Source: Candidatus Parcubacteria bacterium (lineage in GTDB: Bacteria > Patescibacteriota > Minisyncoccia > Phycocordibacterales > JAACPR01). Taken from it: 64,000 nt of DNA. The stretch lies in NCBI GenBank assembly GCA_009995365.1, contig JAACPR010000003.1, positions 405 to 64,404 on the forward strand, read 5' to 3'. A program made the position numbers and the translations under genes. Positions 4,202 through 36,895 of the stretch are shown here, one piece after another (the stretch's first letter is position 1; each line of letters begins with the position of its first letter). The notes beneath the pieces are model-generated. The model was given only the letters and a program-made list of their open reading frames with translations. It was not told the origin of the DNA and ran no database searches.

Positions 4202-6346
4202 ATGAATCGTGATTATCCACTAAATAAAGTTAGAAACTTCGGTATTATTGCCCACATTGATGCCGGAAAAACTACAACATCAGAAAGAATTCTTTTCTAT
4301 ACCGGTGTATCTCACAAAATCGGGGAAGTTCATGAAGGTGCTGCAGTTATGGACTGGATGGAACAAGAAAGAGAAAGAGGTATTACTATTACTTCTGCTG
4401 CTACAACAGCTTTTTGGGTTCCAACATACGAAGATGCAACTGATGAATCTAAAAAAAATCGTTTTAATATTATTGACACACCAGGACACGTTGACTTTAC
4501 AGCTGAAGTAGAACGTTCTCTAAAAGTTCTAGACGGTGGTGTTGTTGTGTTTGACGGTGTTGCTGGAGTTGAACCACAATCAGAAACAGTTTGGAGACAA
4601 GCTGATAAATATGGTGTTCCAAGAATTTGTTTTATTAACAAACTTGATAGAACTGGAGCTAGCTTTGAGAAATCATTCCAATCTATTATCAAAAGATTAA
4701 GTCCTAATGCTGTTCGTGCCCAACTACCATGGGGACATGAAGCAGATCTAAAAGGAGTTATTGATCTTCTTACAATGAAAGCTTACACATTTGAAGGTGA
4801 AATGGGTAATAAAGTAATTGAACAAGAAATTCCAGAAGAATTAAAAGCGGATGCTGAAAAATATCGTAGTGAATTTATTGAAAAAATCGTTGAACAAGAC
4901 GATGAATTGATGGAAAAATTCTTAGGTGGAGAAGAAATTGCTTTGGATAAACTAAAAGCAGCACTTAGAAAAGGTGTTATTGCTAATCAAATCATTCCAG
5001 TATTTACAGGTTCAGCACTTAAAAACGTCGGAGTTCAAAAAGTTCTAGATGCCGTTGTAGATTACCTACCAGCTCCAGACGATGTTCCCCCAATTAAAGG
5101 AGAAAATCCAGATACAGCAGAACCAATGGAAAGAAAATCATCAGATGATGAGCCATTTGCTGCTCTTGCTTTCAAATTACAGACTGACCCATTCGTAGGA
5201 CAGCTTACTTTCTTCCGTGTTTATTCGGGAACAGTATCAGCAGGTTCTTATGTATATAATTCATCAACAGGAAAAAAAGAAAGACTTGGTCGTATCGTTA
5301 GAATGCATGCAAACGATAGAGAAGAAGTGGATACAGTTTATGCTGGAGAAATCGCAGCTGCTGTAGGTCTAAAAGAAACTACAACTTCTGACACGCTTTG
5401 TGATGAAAATAATCCAATTATTCTAGAAAAAATTGAGTTCGCAGAACCAGTTATTTCTATGAGGATTGAGCCAAAGACAAAGGCTGATCAAGAAAAAATG
5501 GGTATGGCTCTTAGTCGTCTTTCATCAGAAGACCCAACTTTCCGTGTTCAAACTGATCAAGAAACTTTGGAAACTGTTATTTCAGGTATGGGTGAGCTTC
5601 ACCTTGATATTATTGTTGATCGTATGAAAAGAGAATTTAATGTCGAAGCAAATGTTGGTAAACCACAAGTTGCTTATCGTGAAACTATTCAAGGAAATGG
5701 TGAAGCAGAACATAAATACATCAAACAATCCGGAGGTAAAGGTCAATACGGTCATGTTAAGATTCGTGTTAAACCAATGGATATGACTGTTAACGCAGAA
5801 GAGCTTCCAAAGAATATTAAAAGAGATGGAGGATTTGAATTTGTTAACTCAATCAAAGGTGGTGTTATTCCAAACGAATTCATTCCAGCCTGTGAAAAAG
5901 GATTTAAAGAAGCTATGGAGCGCGGTATCGTTGCAGGATACAAGATGACAGATGTTTCAGTAGAGCTATACGATGGTTCTTACCATGATGTTGACTCTTC
6001 AGAAATTGCTTTCAAACTTGCGTCTTCAATGGCTTTCCAAGAAGCTGCTAGATCAGCTAGACCAGTTCTACTAGAACCTATTATGAAAGTAGAAGTTACT
6101 TCACCAGAGGAATTTACTGGAGATATTACAGGTAACCTTTCATCAAAGCGTGGACAAGTAGAAGGTATGGATGATCAAGGAAACGGAATCACTGTTATTC
6201 ACTCAAAAGTTCCTTTGTCAGAATTGTTCGGTTACACAACAACTCTTCGTTCTATGACACAAGGTCGTGCTTCAGCAACTATCGAACCGGATCATTATGA
6301 TGTTGTTCCAGCTAATGTTGCCGAAGAAATTAAAGCAGGGAAGTAA
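4202..6346 (+). CDS. fusA: Elongation factor G
   Basis: [26 protein letters not shown] and the full 714-aa EF-G architecture. Confidence 0.95.
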
Positions 6347-6354
6347 GCACACCA

Positions 6355-6490
6355 CCAACATTAACTTATAGAAAACACGAATCAGCGACCTACTCGGGTC
6401 GCTGTTCTCGTCTCGGACGAACTCTTAATTTTATCGACATAGTAGTTCGACCCGTTCGTCCTGTGACGGGTTTTCTATAAGTTAATGTTT
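6355..6490. repeat. About 135-nt palindromic structured element immediately downstream of fusA. A roughly 20-bp outer stem encloses nested hairpins.
   Basis: The outer arms are aacattaacttatagaaaac and gttttctataagttaatgtt. Inner hairpins are cagcgacc...ggtcgctg and cggacgaac...gttcgtcc. Confidence 0.5.
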
Positions 6491-6564: not shown

Positions 6565-6755
6565 ATAAATATAAGTTCATTAAGAAACAAATACTTGCGA
6601 AATTGTATTTATTCAATTAGTCACAGTTTCAGGTAGCTATATTTAATTATTAACAAACAACTAGCTATCTAAAACTGTGACTAATAAAGTCCAGTATTCT
6701 AATTTAATAGATTAGAATCCACACTAAACTAATAGTTATAGAAAAGGACAATAAA

Positions 6756-7349
6756 ATGCAAAATAAATACAAAGACATCTCGTTCGGCACAGCTGAAGCA
6801 GTTTTCAACAAGTTGGGCGGTAAAGAAGGGATTGAAAAATTCCTTCGTGACGAAACCAAGGTTGTTGAGGTTGAAGTTACTGAATTCCCAGAATTCATGA
6901 CAATCAAGATCGGCACCCACGATTCGGTCGACGAACTCCGCCAGTCCCTCAAAGACAAAGGAAATCGTATCTCCAGTTACGGAAACGATATCCTTGGTAA
7001 GATCGCCCTCGCCGAAACCGAGACGGAAGTTACGCTGCACTCTGCGACGGTCAAGGAATTGACCGGCAAAGATGTTGCCAGCAATCGCGAAATCAACGAA
7101 GCAATCCGCTCGAAGGGTTACGATCTCTGCCCCGCAGAGGTGGGACCGCAACTTCGGTTGCAGTACTCTGACCAACCTTCTGGCGAATACCTACGTGTTG
7201 CGATGGAGCCAATCGCCGATTCCGACGGCGACCTCTTCATCTTCGACGTCAATCACGCCTACGATGATCGTTGGCTCGATAGCGACGGCGGGCACCCTGA
7301 CGATCGGTGGAACGGTGGCTATCGTTTCGTCTTCGTTTCTCGCAAGTAG
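6756..7349 (+). CDS. DGR target protein (variable protein) with the variable repeat at its C-terminus
   Basis: The C-terminal 133 nt are homologous to a downstream template repeat, and all mismatches sit at template-repeat adenines. The ending ...GGYRFVFVSRK is weakly reminiscent of a C-type-lectin-fold terminus. Local GC content is elevated. Confidence 0.8.
   Translation: MQNKYKDISFGTAEAVFNKLGGKEGIEKFLRDETKVVEVEVTEFPEFMTIKIGTHDSVDELRQSLKDKGNRISSYGNDILGKIALAETETEVTLHSATVKELTGKDVASNREINEAIRSKGYDLCPAEVGPQLRLQYSDQPSGEYLRVAMEPIADSDGDLFIFDVNHAYDDRWLDSDGGHPDDRWNGGYRFVFVSRK
7215..7347 (+). repeat. DGR variable repeat (VR)
   Basis: Aligns over about 133 nt with 7712-7844. About 15 differences all correspond to A in the template repeat (A to G/T/C). 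The identical GC-rich 3' end gtttcgtcttcgtttctcgcaa is an IMH-like segment. Confidence 0.85.
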
Positions 7350-7404
7350 CTTAGTGCTTTGGACTTGGTCACTCTGACCTAGTCCTTAGATACTTAGACC
7401 TTAG

Positions 7405-7443
7405 TCCCGCCCAATCGTTAGATTGGTGCGGGGCTTTTTTTAT
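7405..7443 (+). terminator. GC-rich hairpin plus T-run downstream of the variable repeat. It is a terminator and possibly the DGR homing-enhancing hairpin.
   Basis: cccgcccaatcgttagattggtgcgggg followed by cttttttt. Confidence 0.5.
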
Positions 7444-7711
7444 TGTATAAAAATTTGTTAAAATATTTTTTGGTATTAGGTGAATATCAGTATATGATCA
7501 TGGTTGTATACCACTGAATCCAGCAATATGATAAATCGAGAATGTTTGCGACTACGGTTTCAAACAGAGTGGTTTATTTGAGCTTTTAAAAAAATAAAAA
7601 TACTTGGTGTGAGGTGTTATTGTATTTAAGATACAGAATTCGATACAACTTGTAGATAATAAATTTGATTATCGATAGGTAGTGGTATGGACGACGCTTC
7701 ATACAGAACGA

Positions 7712-7844
7712 ACCGATTCCGACGGCAACCTCAACATCTTCAACGTCAATCACGACAACGATGATCGTTGGCTCAATAGCAACAACGGGCACCCTGACAA
7801 TCAGTGGAACGGTGACAATCGTTTCGTCTTCGTTTCTCGCAAAT
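7712..7844 (+). repeat. DGR template repeat (TR)
   Basis: Near-identical to the variable repeat, with adenines at every variable position. It lies between the target gene and the reverse transcriptase. Confidence 0.85.
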
Positions 7845-7848
7845 CTTT

Positions 7849-8208
7849 TTATTTCTCTCCCGATTTATTGTTGGGAGAGTTTTGTTTTGTCAGTTGTCCA
7901 TTCCAGCCACCTAACATTTTTCCAATCTCTTCGATTTTTAGAGACAAAGCAATATACTTTTTATGATTTAAACTTTTGCTCTCCCATAAAATCATTAAAA
8001 GTATTTTGAGAGTGTCTATTTTTCTAATTCCAACACGAACATAAGGTTGTTTTTCTTTGGGACTTAAAAAACATGCTTGAGCAATCATTTCAATGCTTTC
8101 AATAAATAGTTTATCGATTTTTATACCTAGAGAATGACGATGTAGTTTTGGAATAGCTTGATAATAACTAAACCAGAGTAAATATAATTCTTTTAGTTTT
8201 TGAAGCAC
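7849..8208 (-). CDS. avd: Avd-like accessory variability determinant (four-helix-bundle, 23S rRNA intervening-sequence protein family) with a GTG start, encoded antisense to the TR-RT spacer
   Basis: 119 aa and basic. ...IPKLHRHSLG... and the C-terminal IEEIGKMLGGWNGQLTKQ resemble the bAvd/PF05635 C-terminus (…eeigkmL..). It sits between the template repeat and the reverse transcriptase. Confidence 0.65.
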   Translation of the reverse strand: MLQKLKELYLLWFSYYQAIPKLHRHSLGIKIDKLFIESIEMIAQACFLSPKEKQPYVRVGIRKIDTLKILLMILWESKSLNHKKYIALSLKIEEIGKMLGGWNGQLTKQNSPNNKSGEK

Positions 8209-8219
8209 TGGTAAAAGCT

Positions 8220-9269
8220 TTGCGGGGGGGGGGTAGACTGTTTATAGTGAGAAAAATTTTTAGACATGAATACAATGATATCATTTCTGTTGAGAATTTG
8301 TTATTAGCTTGGCAAGAATTTATTAGAGGGAAGAAAAATAGGAAAGATGTTCAAGAATTTCAATTATATCTGATGAAAAATATTTTTGAATTACATTTTG
8401 ATTTAAAAAATAAAACTTACCAACATTCGAAATATCAAAAATTCAATATTAGTGATCCAAAGCCAAGAGAAATTAATAAAGCATCTGTTAGAGATAGATT
8501 ACTTCATCATGCTATTTATCAAAAACTTTATCCATTTTTTGATAAGAAGTTTATTGGTGATTCTTATTCTTGTAGGAATGGAAAAGGAACGCATAAAGCC
8601 ATTAATCAATTTGAGAAATTTTATAGAAAAGTTTCTAAAAATCACACTAAAACTTGTTGGGTTTTAAAATGTGATATTAAAAAATTCTTTGCCAGTATTA
8701 ACCATCAGATTTTAAAGGATGTTTTAATTAAATATATTTCTGATAAAGATATTTTAAATTTATTGTCAGTGATAATTGATAGTTTTGAAACTAATAAACA
8801 TTTAATAGTTGGCAAAAATTCAAAAACTGGTCTTCCACTCGGAAATTTAACCTCTCAATTATTGGTTAATATTTACATGAATGAATTTGATCATTTTGTT
8901 AAAGGAAATTTGAAAATAAAATATTATGTTCGTTATGCTGATGATTTTGTTTTTCTATCTACAGACAAAAAATTTTTAGAAAAACTTATTCCTAAAATTG
9001 GATATTTTTTAGAAACTAATTTAAAATTAACTCTACACCCTAACAAAGTTTCAATCAAAAATTATTCATCAGGTGTCGATTTTCTTGGCTGGGTTCATTT
9101 TGATGATCATAAAATACTAAGAACTAATACTAAAAATCGGATGTTTAAGAAATTACAATTTCAGTTAGAAAAATTTGGAGAAATTAACGAAGATTCGAGA
9201 CAGTCTTATTTGGGATTATTGTCGCATGGTAATACTTATAAAATTCAACAAGAAATAAGAGGAAAATAA
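8220..9269 (+). CDS. DGR reverse transcriptase. The start is uncertain: TTG at 8220 or GTG at 8247.
   Basis: RT motifs are DIKKFFASINHQIL, the YVRYADDFVF (YADD) motif and the LGNLTSQ motif (the DGR-specific I/LGxxxSQ that replaces QGxxxSP of group II RTs). About 349 aa with no maturase or endonuclease domains. Confidence 0.85.
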   Translation: MRGGGRLFIVRKIFRHEYNDIISVENLLLAWQEFIRGKKNRKDVQEFQLYLMKNIFELHFDLKNKTYQHSKYQKFNISDPKPREINKASVRDRLLHHAIYQKLYPFFDKKFIGDSYSCRNGKGTHKAINQFEKFYRKVSKNHTKTCWVLKCDIKKFFASINHQILKDVLIKYISDKDILNLLSVIIDSFETNKHLIVGKNSKTGLPLGNLTSQLLVNIYMNEFDHFVKGNLKIKYYVRYADDFVFLSTDKKFLEKLIPKIGYFLETNLKLTLHPNKVSIKNYSSGVDFLGWVHFDDHKILRTNTKNRMFKKLQFQLEKFGEINEDSRQSYLGLLSHGNTYKIQQEIRGK

Positions 9270-9327
9270 AATCTTTCTAAAATAATAGTTTGACTAAAGT
9301 AATACAATGTATATACTTTGTATTATG

Positions 9328-9597
9328 AAAACAACAACCAGTATAAAACTAGATAAAGAGGTCAAAGAACAGGCTTCTGATTTAGCCAAGGAACTTGGAC
9401 TTTCTCTGAGTGGTGTTATTAATGCTACTCTAAAACAGTTTGTTAATGACAGGAGTGTTTTTCTGACTACTACCCCTCAATTCAATGAAAAAGCCGCCAA
9501 ACGAATGCTAAAATTAATGGATGATGCTAAAAAAGGTAAAAATCTATGTGGTCCTTTTAAAACAGATGAAGAATTATTTAAAGCATTAGAAATTTAA
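9328..9597 (+). CDS. dinJ: DinJ/RelB-family antitoxin. The ORF track starts at 9307.
   Basis: SIKLDKEVKEQASDLAKELGLSLSGVINATLKQF matches the DinJ RHH N-terminus. Confidence 0.7.
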   Translation, partial: KTTTSIKLDKEVKEQASDLAKELGLSLSGVINATLKQFVNDRSVFLTTTPQFNEKAAKRMLKLMDDAKKGKNLCGPFKTDEELFKALEI

Positions 9598-9604
9598 TTT
9601 TATT

Positions 9605-9859
9605 ATGCGGATAACTTTTCATAGGAAATTTAAGAAAAATATTAAAAAACAACCTAGAAAAGTTCAAATTAAATTTAAAAAAAGATATAAATTATTTAAA
9701 AAAGATCAATTTCATCATTCACTCAACAATCACGCTCTAAAAGGAAAATATTATGGAATTAGAAGTATTAATATAACTGGTGATATTAGGGCTCATTACC
9801 TAGAGGATGATGGAGGTGTTATTTTTCTGGATATCGGTGATCATTCTGACCTATATTAG
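9605..9859 (+). CDS. yafQ: YafQ/RelE-family toxin (mRNA interferase)
   Basis: HHSLNNHALKGKYYGIRSINITGDIRAHYL...DIGDHSDLY matches the YafQ C-terminal signature. It is adjacent to and just downstream of the antitoxin gene. Confidence 0.7.
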   Translation: MRITFHRKFKKNIKKQPRKVQIKFKKRYKLFKKDQFHHSLNNHALKGKYYGIRSINITGDIRAHYLEDDGGVIFLDIGDHSDLY

Positions 9860-9872
9860 TTTTGTCTTGATT

Positions 9873-9992
9873 AAAACCCTAACCCAAATACTATCGAGTT
9901 CCTCCGCAGACCTTCGTTGTCAATGACTTTATGTCTTGACATAAGAAGTGTCGAGGACGGGAACGAGAGAGTATTTGGGTTAGGGTTTTTTT
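9873..9992 (+). ncRNA. Terminator-embedded structured RNA element, copy 1. A conserved roughly 80-nt core sits inside a long outer stem followed by a T-run.
   Basis: The outer stem is aaaaccctaacccaaatac / gtatttgggttagggttttttt. The core ctatcgagttcctccgcagacc...gtcaatg.ctttA..cttgac.aag.agtgtcgaggacgggaacgagagag is shared with the copy at 23059-23175. Confidence 0.5.
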
Positions 9993-9993
9993 A

Positions 9994-10021
9994 TTGACAC
10001 AAAACTATCTTCTGTTAATAT
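9994..10021 (+). promoter_or_regulatory. Putative sigma70 promoter for tuf (TTGACA, 16-nt spacer, TAATAT)
   Basis: Sits immediately after the structured terminator and about 180 nt upstream of tuf. Confidence 0.35.
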
Positions 10022-10198: not shown

Positions 10199-11386
10199 AT
10201 GGCAGATTTTGATAGAACAAAACCCCATGTAAACGTTGGAACAATTGGACACGTTGACCATGGTAAAACAACACTTACTGCTGCACTTCTAACAACATTG
10301 AACTCAGCAGGTGAAGGATACTCAGCTAACATGAAAGCTGTTGAAGACATCGACAAAGCCCCAGAAGAAAAGGCTCGTGGTATTACAATTTCACTTTCTC
10401 ACAACGAGTATGAAACTCCAGAGAGACACTATGCTCATATTGATGCTCCAGGTCACGCCGACTACATCAAAAACATGATTACTGGTGCTGCTCAGATGGA
10501 CGGTGCTATTATCGTTGTCGCAGCAACAGATGGTGTTATGCCACAAACTCGTGAACACATCCTACTTGCAAAACAAGTTGGTGTTCCAAAAATTATTATT
10601 TTCTTGAACAAATGTGACATGGTTGATGATGCAGAAATGATCGACCTAGTTGAAGAAGAAGTTCGTGAACTTCTTTCATCTCAAGGATTTGACGGGGAAA
10701 ATGCTCCAGTAGTTAGAGGATCAGCTCTAAAAGCCCTAGAAGGAGATGCTACATGGAAAGAAAAAATTATGGAACTTGCTGGACACATGGATTCTTATAT
10801 TCCAACACCAGAAAGAGAAACTGATAAACCTTTCCTAATGCCAGTTGAAGACGTGTTCTCAATCGAAGGTAGAGGAACTGTTGTAACAGGTAGAATTGAA
10901 AGAGGAAAAATCAAAGTTGGTGAAGAAGTTGAAATTGTTGGTATCAAAGATACTACAAAAACAACTATTACCGGAGTTGAAATGTTCAACAAATCTCTAC
11001 AAGAAGGTATGGCTGGAGACAACGCCGGTCTACTTGTAAGAGGTCTTAAAAAAGATGATATTCACAGAGGTCAAGTTCTAGCTGTGCCAGGGTCAATTAC
11101 TCCACACACAGAATTCGAAGCTGAAGTTTACATCCTAAAGAAAGAAGAAGGAGGACGTCACACACCATTCTTCTCAGGTTATAAACCACAATTCTACATG
11201 AGAACTACAGACGTAACTGGTGAAGTTACTCTAAACGAAGGTGTAGAAATGGTTATGCCAGGAGATACAGTTACTTTCAAAGTAAAACTATCTGCTCCTA
11301 TCGCGATGGAAGATCAACAAAGATTTGCTATCCGTGAAGGTGGTAAAACAGTTGGTGCTGGAGTTATTACAAAAGTTGTAGCTTAA
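10199..11386 (+). CDS. tuf: Elongation factor Tu
   Basis: [28 protein letters not shown] and the full EF-Tu sequence. Confidence 0.95.
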
Positions 11387-36246: not shown

Positions 36247-36441
36247 ATGGAATTAAAAAACAATCTTCAAAAAATTAGAAAAGAAAAAGGAGTAACTCAA
36301 GAAGAGTTGGCTAAGAAGGTCGGTGTAACTAGACAGACCATTATTTGCATCGAGCACGGAAATTGTTCACCGTCTATTTCTGTAGCGTTAAAAATCGGTA
36401 AAACGCTAGGTGTTTGCGTTGACGATATTTTTGAAATATAA
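36247..36441 (+). CDS. XRE-family helix-turn-helix transcriptional regulator
   Basis: LQKIRKEKGVTQEELAKKVGVTRQTIICIEHG. Confidence 0.75.
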   Translation: MELKNNLQKIRKEKGVTQEELAKKVGVTRQTIICIEHGNCSPSISVALKIGKTLGVCVDDIFEI

Positions 36442-36484
36442 CTAAATTCTTTAAAAGACAAAAAAAAAGGGGGGGGTAAATAAA

Positions 36485-36510
36485 AGACCCGTCAATATTT
36501 TGGCGGGTCT
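36485..36510. terminator. Hairpin terminator (AGACCCGtcaatattttggCGGGTCT) preceded by an A9G8 homopolymer pair
   Basis: 7-bp GC stem between convergent genes. Confidence 0.4.
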
Positions 36511-36526
36511 TTGTTGAAAAACTCTG

Positions 36527-36895
36527 TCAGGCCACTAATTGAGCATTTTCAGTTTCTTCGGTTGATTCTTCAGAATATTCGTATTCTATTTTAATACGTC
36601 CACCCCATACTAATTCGGGGTGTTTTTCTTTGAATTCGAAGAAAACCTTTGATACTCTTCCAGTTTTTAGATAGTATAGAAGTCTTTCACCAGGGTGATT
36701 GCTGGGATCATTATGAAAATGTTCTCCAGCATACCATTGATTTTCAGGACTTTTTATTTCATCTAAGACAGTTTTTAATGCACCATATAACAGAGAATTT
36801 CTGAATGTGCTATTTTGGGTAGTTTTTTCAGACATTGCAGGTTCCTCCATATATAATTCTACACCCGTTATGCACAGTTTTATATAGTTATCCAC
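36527..36895 (-). CDS. Hypothetical protein
   Basis: ORF. The true start is probably at MEEPAMSEKTT or MSEKTT. Confidence 0.35.
   Translation of the reverse strand: MDNYIKLCITGVELYMEEPAMSEKTTQNSTFRNSLLYGALKTVLDEIKSPENQWYAGEHFHNDPSNHPGERLLYYLKTGRVSKVFFEFKEKHPELVWGGRIKIEYEYSEESTEETENAQLVA

Follow-up and report, generated by a model that had tools for sequence, protein, structure and literature searches.

A length-variable G tract between avd and the reverse transcriptase gene of a Patescibacterial diversity-generating retroelement as a candidate contingency switch

What could be the role of a run of ten guanosines in the short gap between two divergent genes of a retroelement, in DNA with a G+C content of only 34%? 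This question is raised by a diversity-generating retroelement (DGR) in a 64,000-nt stretch of contig JAACPR010000003.1 from a Candidatus Parcubacteria bacterium; the whole stretch is referred to below as the window. The window holds one complete DGR, which is flanked by fusA (4202–6346) and tuf (10199–11386). It is an ordinary DGR of the type found in the Candidate Phyla Radiation (CPR), with the architecture called B3, in which a target gene with a variable repeat (VR) is followed by the template repeat (TR), by avd (accessory variability determinant) in reverse orientation, and by the reverse transcriptase (RT) gene (Table 1). We propose, with a probability that we put at roughly 0.55, that slipped-strand changes make the G tract between avd and RT a contingency switch, which would act on the expression of RT, and possibly of avd, at the level of the promoter or leader.

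The repeat tract at the avd–RT junction

Inspection of the sequence and of its open reading frames (ORFs) recovered every feature listed in an initial annotation made from the sequence alone, including the G10 tract, at exactly the coordinates given in it. The starts of avd and RT are separated by a gap of about 38 nt, most of which is taken up by the tract. On the opposite strand the avd start is located 15 nt downstream of it, which places a repeat long enough for hypermutability in the 5′/promoter region. It is the longest homopolymer in the window, where runs of G8 were matched four times, as against 0.22 matches expected in shuffled sequences. The only other long homopolymer in the window is an A9G8 tract at 36460–36476, in the interval between a small HTH-type gene (36247–36441, plus strand), which it follows, and a convergent ORF (36527–36895, minus strand), with a hairpin at about 36487–36512 just after it.

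The junction was compared among the best 80 of at least 588 genomic relatives of the RT, all of which are contigs of metagenome-assembled genomes, labelled nearly without exception as Patescibacteria/CPR lineages or plainly as "bacterium". The data showed that a tract of G7 to G13 is present at the same position in about 60 of the 72 evaluable relatives (57–69% identical RTs), with G9 in 17 relatives, G10 in 16, G11 in 12, G8 in 9, and G7 and G13 in 3 each. Ten relatives have another simple repeat at this position, which is (GA)n in six of them; the others are (CTGG)10, (TTCG)9, (TTGG)10 and (GATTGCT)11, all within one subclade with 74–85% RT identity. The observed units are thus 1, 2, 4 or 7 nt long, and none of these lengths is a multiple of three. 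On the other hand, seven B3-type relatives (44–57% identity) have no repeat tract, and the distant DGR RTs (30–40% identity) are all without such a tract, the only repeats found there being AAC repeats inside their TRs. The absence of the tract from some B3 relatives and from distant DGRs fits a regulatory add-on rather than a requirement of the DGR mechanism. This comparison suggests that it is the repeat itself, rather than its sequence, that is conserved. A role as a G-quadruplex or as a purine strand was also considered as a general explanation, and it was ruled out by a relative on a viral contig (L142), which has a pyrimidine-rich (CT)19 repeat on the RT strand.

The length of the tract also varies within near-clonal populations, as seen in assembly consensus contigs. 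Nineteen assemblies of the window locus have identical flanks; 11 of them have a G9 tract and the other 8 a G10 tract, and in four assemblies a 1-nt indel in the tract is the sole difference from the window over 2.7–3.9 kb. An independent lineage, P0061 (64% RT identity), has tracts of G10, G11, G12 and G13, and in three of its assemblies the tract indel is the sole difference over 3.4 kb. Hence, the poly-G length polymorphism, which had been raised in the initial annotation, is found between otherwise identical genomes both at this locus and in P0061. The organism of the window contains a second, paralogous B3 DGR next to dnaE (75% RT identity), whose junction, ...cttgc-G9-tagactgtttaaagtgaga, is the same as that of the window, which means that the tract arrangement is duplicated within one genome. 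The paralogous tract is G9 in 14 of 15 assemblies, which makes it unlikely that the 11:8 split at the window locus is plain homopolymer miscalling.

The tract also leaves traces in the records of these loci. Contig ends or scaffold N-gaps adjoin it in many assemblies. In the RT cluster, near-identical proteins (at least 90%) are called as 298, 323, 340 or 349 aa, which may reflect the gene caller, while Avd is called as 79, 119 or 144 aa in assemblies with hardly any difference outside the tract, the 119-aa call going with G10 and the 144-aa call with G9. The G tract disrupts both assembly and annotation.

This raises the possibility that the homopolymer is neutral and has no biological role, and that its length differences come from noise in sequencing or assembly. 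Such noise could be suspected because the lengths are known from consensus contigs only and several contigs and scaffolds break at the tract, and because the single sample with G10 for the second DGR also has G10 for the window locus. However, tracts of G7 to G13 persist over about 40% RT divergence in genomes with about 34–45% G+C, and persistence at such divergence and base composition needs selection. The presence of other repeat types at the same spot, and the different length distributions of the window tract and its paralog, are also not expected from noise. Thus, noise appears to be a very improbable explanation of the data.

Position of the tract and its possible mode of action

In the initial annotation the G10 tract was placed within the first RT codons (MRGGG), where frameshifts would switch the translation of RT on and off. 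It is true that in the G10 state an open frame extends from TTG 8220 through the RT gene to 9269, which puts this TTG, 11 nt away from the GTG of avd at 8208, in the RT frame. However, the start codon lies 13 nt past the tract in the window, and this is also the most frequent distance among the relatives. In the near relative L001 (G9) the GTG is conserved, while no start codon ahead of the tract is in frame with RT. Moreover, the RT homologues in databases are mostly 325–340 aa long, and the closest solved relative, Bordetella bRT (8ub7_A, E 1e-36), matches residues 4–322 of the protein counted from GTG 8247 with its own residues 4–300, which makes this N-terminus colinear with bRT from residue 4. 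Because of the start distance, the L001 sequence, the homologue lengths and the colinearity with bRT, the tract is better placed upstream of the RT gene than in its first codons, and RT most likely starts at GTG 8247.

The situation is different in 18 other loci, which have no canonical start codon between the repeat and the RT core, so that the repeat is inside the RT ORF. The unit lengths, all non-multiples of three, would suit frameshifting in these relatives, but an open in-frame reading through the tract is found in only about 30% of such loci, which is roughly the level of chance. Taken with the position of the start codon, this makes a frameshift switch in the RT coding sequence quite unlikely for the window locus, although it is plausible for the relatives with the repeat in the ORF. 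The repeat would then act through the promoter or leader at the window locus, and through the RT frame in those relatives.

The sequence between the tract and the RT start could suggest how an upstream tract might be involved in expression. In 60 relatives, position +1 after poly-G is T in 86%, position +2 is A in 58% and position +6 is T in 68%, with ATG at +14 to +16, and the geometry of tract, TAnnnT, 7 nt and start codon is conserved among the relatives. The corresponding hexamer of the window, TAGACT, may by pattern resemblance only be considered as the −10 box of a leaderless or very short-leader RT mRNA.

In the proposed mechanism avd and RT would be transcribed divergently from the gap of about 38 nt, and the tract would behave as a contingency-type simple-sequence repeat (SSR), in which G's are gained or lost by slipped-strand events. 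A change in the tract length would alter the geometry of the shared promoter/leader region, and the altered geometry could cause a stochastic and reversible rise or fall in the expression of RT, and possibly of avd. In the Bordetella model system both avd and RT are required for retrohoming. Such a change in expression would therefore be expected to toggle mutagenic retrohoming. The reading of the tract as a contingency locus is based on its conserved position, the interchangeability of the units, its dispensability in some relatives, its length polymorphism, and its location in a gap between divergent genes. From the sequence we infer that tract length affects expression, as well as which gene is affected and where the promoter is located. 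The slipped-strand RT switch of the initial annotation is thus retained in spirit, in that the position of the tract is kept, other repeats substitute for it, and its length is polymorphic in near-clonal genomes, while the part concerning the reading frame is not retained for the window locus, where the effect would be on the promoter or leader.

The main rival of this proposal is that the G tract is a fixed functional element, such as a part of the RT or avd promoter, a protein-binding site, or a G-quadruplex-like RNA or DNA structure, with its length variation being incidental. This could explain why poly-G is by far the commonest repeat, always with G on the RT strand, why it tightly abuts the −10-like hexamer, and why its lengths range only from 7 to 13. 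However, the strand consistency can also be accounted for by common descent. A fixed element is also difficult to reconcile with its substitution by units unrelated to poly-G, among them a 7-mer, (TTCG)n and, on the RT strand, (CT)19, and with the B3 relatives that have no tract. We consider this explanation doubtful, and the slipped-strand switch remains the preferred reading.

Several observations weigh against such a switch at the promoter or leader. A standard promoter scan called no promoter at 8208–8239, and no convincing −35 element was found, as the distances from TGGYAA to the −10-like hexamer are spread over 11–21 nt. Compensation between linker length and tract length, which is the expectation of a promoter-spacer constraint, was not significant (Spearman −0.17 to −0.22). 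The 40-nt tetranucleotide arrays are too long for a −35/−10 spacer, and thus a single mechanism does not suit all relatives. Of the 18 loci with the repeat in the RT ORF, 7 have it in frame with an ATG upstream, about as many as expected by chance. The VR consensus does not differ among the four assemblies whose consensus contigs cover the VR, and it is the same in G9 and G10 assemblies, so that no link between the state of the tract and diversification is visible at the consensus level. Finally, the length comparison was made on assembly consensus contigs, some of which may be re-assemblies of the same raw data, and a contribution of Illumina or assembler errors at G9–G13 has to be allowed for.

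Architecture of the element and the 3′ end of the template RNA

The antisense orientation of avd was described as unusual in the initial annotation. However, this layout with a reverse avd, TR-(avd)-RT, has been published as B3 and makes up 90% of the CPR set in which it was described (Wu et al. 2018, NAR, PMC5758913). At the window locus the TR, the minus-strand avd and RT follow in this order without any other accessory gene. The comparison of the relatives showed a reverse avd directly upstream of RT in all 70 relatives with at least 500 nt of upstream sequence, and hence this orientation is not unusual. The window locus is also similar to the CPR/DPANN B3 DGRs (Wu et al. 2018) in the LGNLTSQ motif of RT, in a VR that ends the target gene and has adenine-specific mismatches to the TR, and in the four-helix-bundle Avd, and it has no difference from them in its architecture.

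The hairpin that follows the TR begins about 10 nt past it and overlaps the final 10 or so avd codons, which agrees with the overlap of the avd 3′ end reported initially. Of 71 loci, 60 have a CTCYCC...GGRGAG hairpin with a T-run at the 3′ end of avd, a count obtained independently of the covariance model. This model, which was built from eight loci and to which the alignment was fitted, matches 44 loci, with 96% of the cells paired and compensatory changes at 9 of 10 pairs. None of 500 shuffles reached the observed values, and when the register was slid the pairing dropped to 32–58%. The hairpin is present in the minimum free energy (MFE) and the centroid folds alike. As judged from sequence only, it has the properties of an intrinsic terminator, which are a GC-rich hairpin with an immediate U-run, kept with compensatory changes. 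Read in antisense, this hairpin encodes the Avd tail, "KQNSP...GEK*". In three loci a stop codon ends the avd frame inside the hairpin loop, and GEK or WER codons are nevertheless retained downstream of it. The persistence of these codons past the stop suggests that the constraint at the avd 3′ end is on nucleotides and not on protein, and by this comparison the Avd tail owes the conservation of its end solely to its location opposite the TR hairpin.

The fact that a conserved, covarying hairpin with TTTTGTTTT is located right after the TR suggests that the TR RNA probably ends there, as a short separate transcript with its 3′ end at about 7888. With such an end, the antisense avd would not be a functional spacer of the DGR RNA. 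The earlier suggestion that avd is embedded in this spacer is largely not borne out, because the terminator-like hairpin and U-run follow directly after the TR, only the disordered tail of Avd overlaps the hairpin, and the template RNA probably ends before the body of avd. Alternatively, the TR transcript could run through the antisense avd to RT as a long DGR RNA, and the antisense arrangement could regulate avd. This would be consistent with the location of TR and RT on the same strand, with the requirement for RNA downstream of the TR in the Bordetella phage, and with the conserved overlap of the avd 3′ end and the TR-proximal hairpin. On the other hand, the hairpin with TTTTGTTTT resembles an intrinsic terminator in 44–60 loci, and RT has its own conserved −10-like element. 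Moreover, co-transcription of TR and RT is not obligatory in DGRs (Wu et al. 2018, PMC5758913). Hence, a long read-through RNA is decidedly improbable, and a short TR RNA is the preferred explanation.

A further conserved motif is located upstream of the TR. Of the 51 loci examined, 35 have AAAAAATGAAGATACTTGG or a near variant of it at a distance of about 196–253 nt on the 5′ side of the TR hairpin. The TR and the hairpin are separated by a TCTTCATTT flank, to which the AAATGAAGA core of the motif is complementary, and compensatory-looking changes in this pairing were observed in the window and in four other loci. The motif may be the 5′ arm of a duplex that brackets the TR, in which case the duplex would resemble that of the Bordetella DGR RNA, or it may be a promoter of the TR RNA with GATACT as the −10 element. 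The per-locus scores for long-range pairing of the TR 3′ flank with an upstream partner were not above those of shuffles, and in the MFE fold the A-rich 5′ motif pairs with the U-tail instead of the TR 3′ flank.

Components of the element, its surroundings and implications

The assignment of the locus to DGRs is supported by each of its components. The LGNLTSQ motif is invariant in an alignment of 24 RT sequences. A motif of the form (I/L)GxxxSQ marks the RTs of the DGR clade, while group II introns and retrons have QGxxxSP. Hence, the RVT_1 match, the LGNLTSQ motif and the match to bRT place this RT in the DGR clade. The minus-strand ORF is Avd-like, as had been supposed. The Pfam bAvd match (E 2.3e-11, 44.6 bits) is above the gathering cut-off of 40, while the NCBIfam DivGenRetAVD match (E 5e-14, 52 bits) is below the cut-off of 80 of that model, and the database relatives listed for this protein all have PF22296, several of them under the NCBI name "four helix bundle protein". 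The AlphaFold (AF2) model of the 119-aa product has four helices, with a predicted local distance difference test (pLDDT) score of 84, and with values below 50 for residues 110–119. It matches Avd of the Bordetella phage in 4dwl and the Avd chains of 8ub7 with template modelling (TM) scores of 0.72–0.84 (0.75–0.84 for 4dwl). Single-sequence and profile searches of PDB sequences with this protein found no Avd, and thus the match is at the level of the fold only; it corresponds to the basic four-helix bundle of the accessory protein of DGRs. The mismatches between TR and VR inside the repeat are all at TR adenines, and the VR ends 4 nt ahead of the stop codon of the target gene. The 197-aa target ORF had no match in Pfam or NCBIfam.

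The comparison with the DGR of Bordetella phage BPP-1 (mtd-avd-TR-brt; 4dwl, 8ub7) showed homologous RTs, a similar Avd fold, and adenine-specific mutagenesis in both systems. In contrast to the reversed avd of the window locus, avd of BPP-1 is co-directional and located upstream of the TR. The functional RNA of BPP-1 extends from the end of avd through the TR into a spacer of about 140 nt before brt, whereas at the window locus the terminator-like hairpin is at most about 10 nt past the TR. In addition, the RT start of BPP-1 is without a repeat tract, which is present at the window locus.

Directly after RT there is a RelB-like antitoxin gene (9307–9597) followed by a YafQ/ParE-like toxin gene (9605–9859). 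This pair stays with RT in all assemblies of the locus, while the paralogous DGR has another neighbor. Three long inverted repeats surround the DGR cassette between fusA and tuf, at 6357–6489, 6616–6685 and 9860–10002. Their arms measure 23, 24 and 43 nt, with 96, 92 and 79% complementarity, respectively. They may be terminators or remnants of an inserted element, and none of the three matches Rfam. There was also no Rfam match in the region 7300–8400, and the whole window yielded only a tmRNA and one tRNA. Pattern scans of metagenome contigs for further copies of the avd/RT junction gave no match.

Table 1. Features of the DGR locus, with positions counted from the first nucleotide of the window
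Feature	Position	Strand	Remarks
DGR target gene, 197 aa	6756..7349	+	ORF; VR at its 3′ end
VR	7216..7345	+	130-nt direct repeat of TR, 89% identity
Conserved motif AAAAAATAAAAATACTTGG	7588..7606	+	Upstream of TR; partly complementary to 7840–7854
TR	7713..7842	+	130-nt repeat paired with VR
avd, 119 aa, GTG start at 8208	7849..8208	−	ORF; Pfam bAvd
Hairpin CTCTCCC...GGGAGAG (7855–7879) with TTTTGTTTT (7880–7888)	7855..7888	+	Terminator-like by scan
G10 simple-sequence repeat	8224..8233	+	Between divergent avd and RT starts
TAGACT, −10-like hexamer	8234..8239	+	Directly after G tract, 7 nt before GTG 8247
DGR reverse transcriptase, 340 aa from GTG 8247	8247..9269	+	Pfam RVT_1, E 5.5e-27

Repeats that serve as contingency loci in divergent or core promoters include (TA)n at hifA/hifB of H. 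influenzae, and poly-G at porA, poly-C at opc and (TAAA)n at nadA of N. meningitidis. Like the SSR contingency loci in divergent or core promoters, the window locus has a hypermutable repeat amid promoter elements, here putatively those of two divergent genes, with natural length polymorphism and with unit types that are interchangeable between lineages. The loci named above control surface antigens, whereas the tract of the window would control a machine for targeted hypermutation, and its host is an uncultivated Patescibacterium. Such loci are the subject of general reviews (e.g., PMC11868660). Our search of the literature, which did not cover Paul et al. 2017 (Nat Microbiol), found no work that links DGRs to phase variation, homopolymers or poly-G, and no mention in the DGR literature of a repeat tract between avd and RT or of the conserved hairpin 3′ to the TR. 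Phase variation by repeats, DGRs and the B3 layout are all well known on their own, and it is their combination that appears to be undescribed.

Two consequences concern the study of these elements in general. In B3 elements, the template RNA is likely to end at the conserved hairpin and U-run on the 3′ side of the TR. Differing length calls for RT and Avd, and contig breaks at the tract, both have an effect on surveys of CPR DGRs.

The regulation of DGRs in their natural hosts is largely open, and a DGR that never stopped would keep overwriting useful variants. If the proposal is true, a conserved slipped-strand repeat at the avd/RT junction would be a simple answer to this problem for a large CPR clade of DGRs. 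For hundreds of Patescibacterial DGRs the odds seem to us evenly balanced that a selected, hypermutable repeat between avd and RT provides a stochastic, heritable and reversible switch of hypermutation, either on/off or graded, which would act via the promoter/leader or via the RT frame depending on the lineage. Mixed ON and OFF subpopulations would then be predicted, and they could be read from the tract length in metagenomic reads. The repeat would thus be a second-order evolvability device, in which the OFF state freezes a useful variant of the target, while diversification can be re-entered later.

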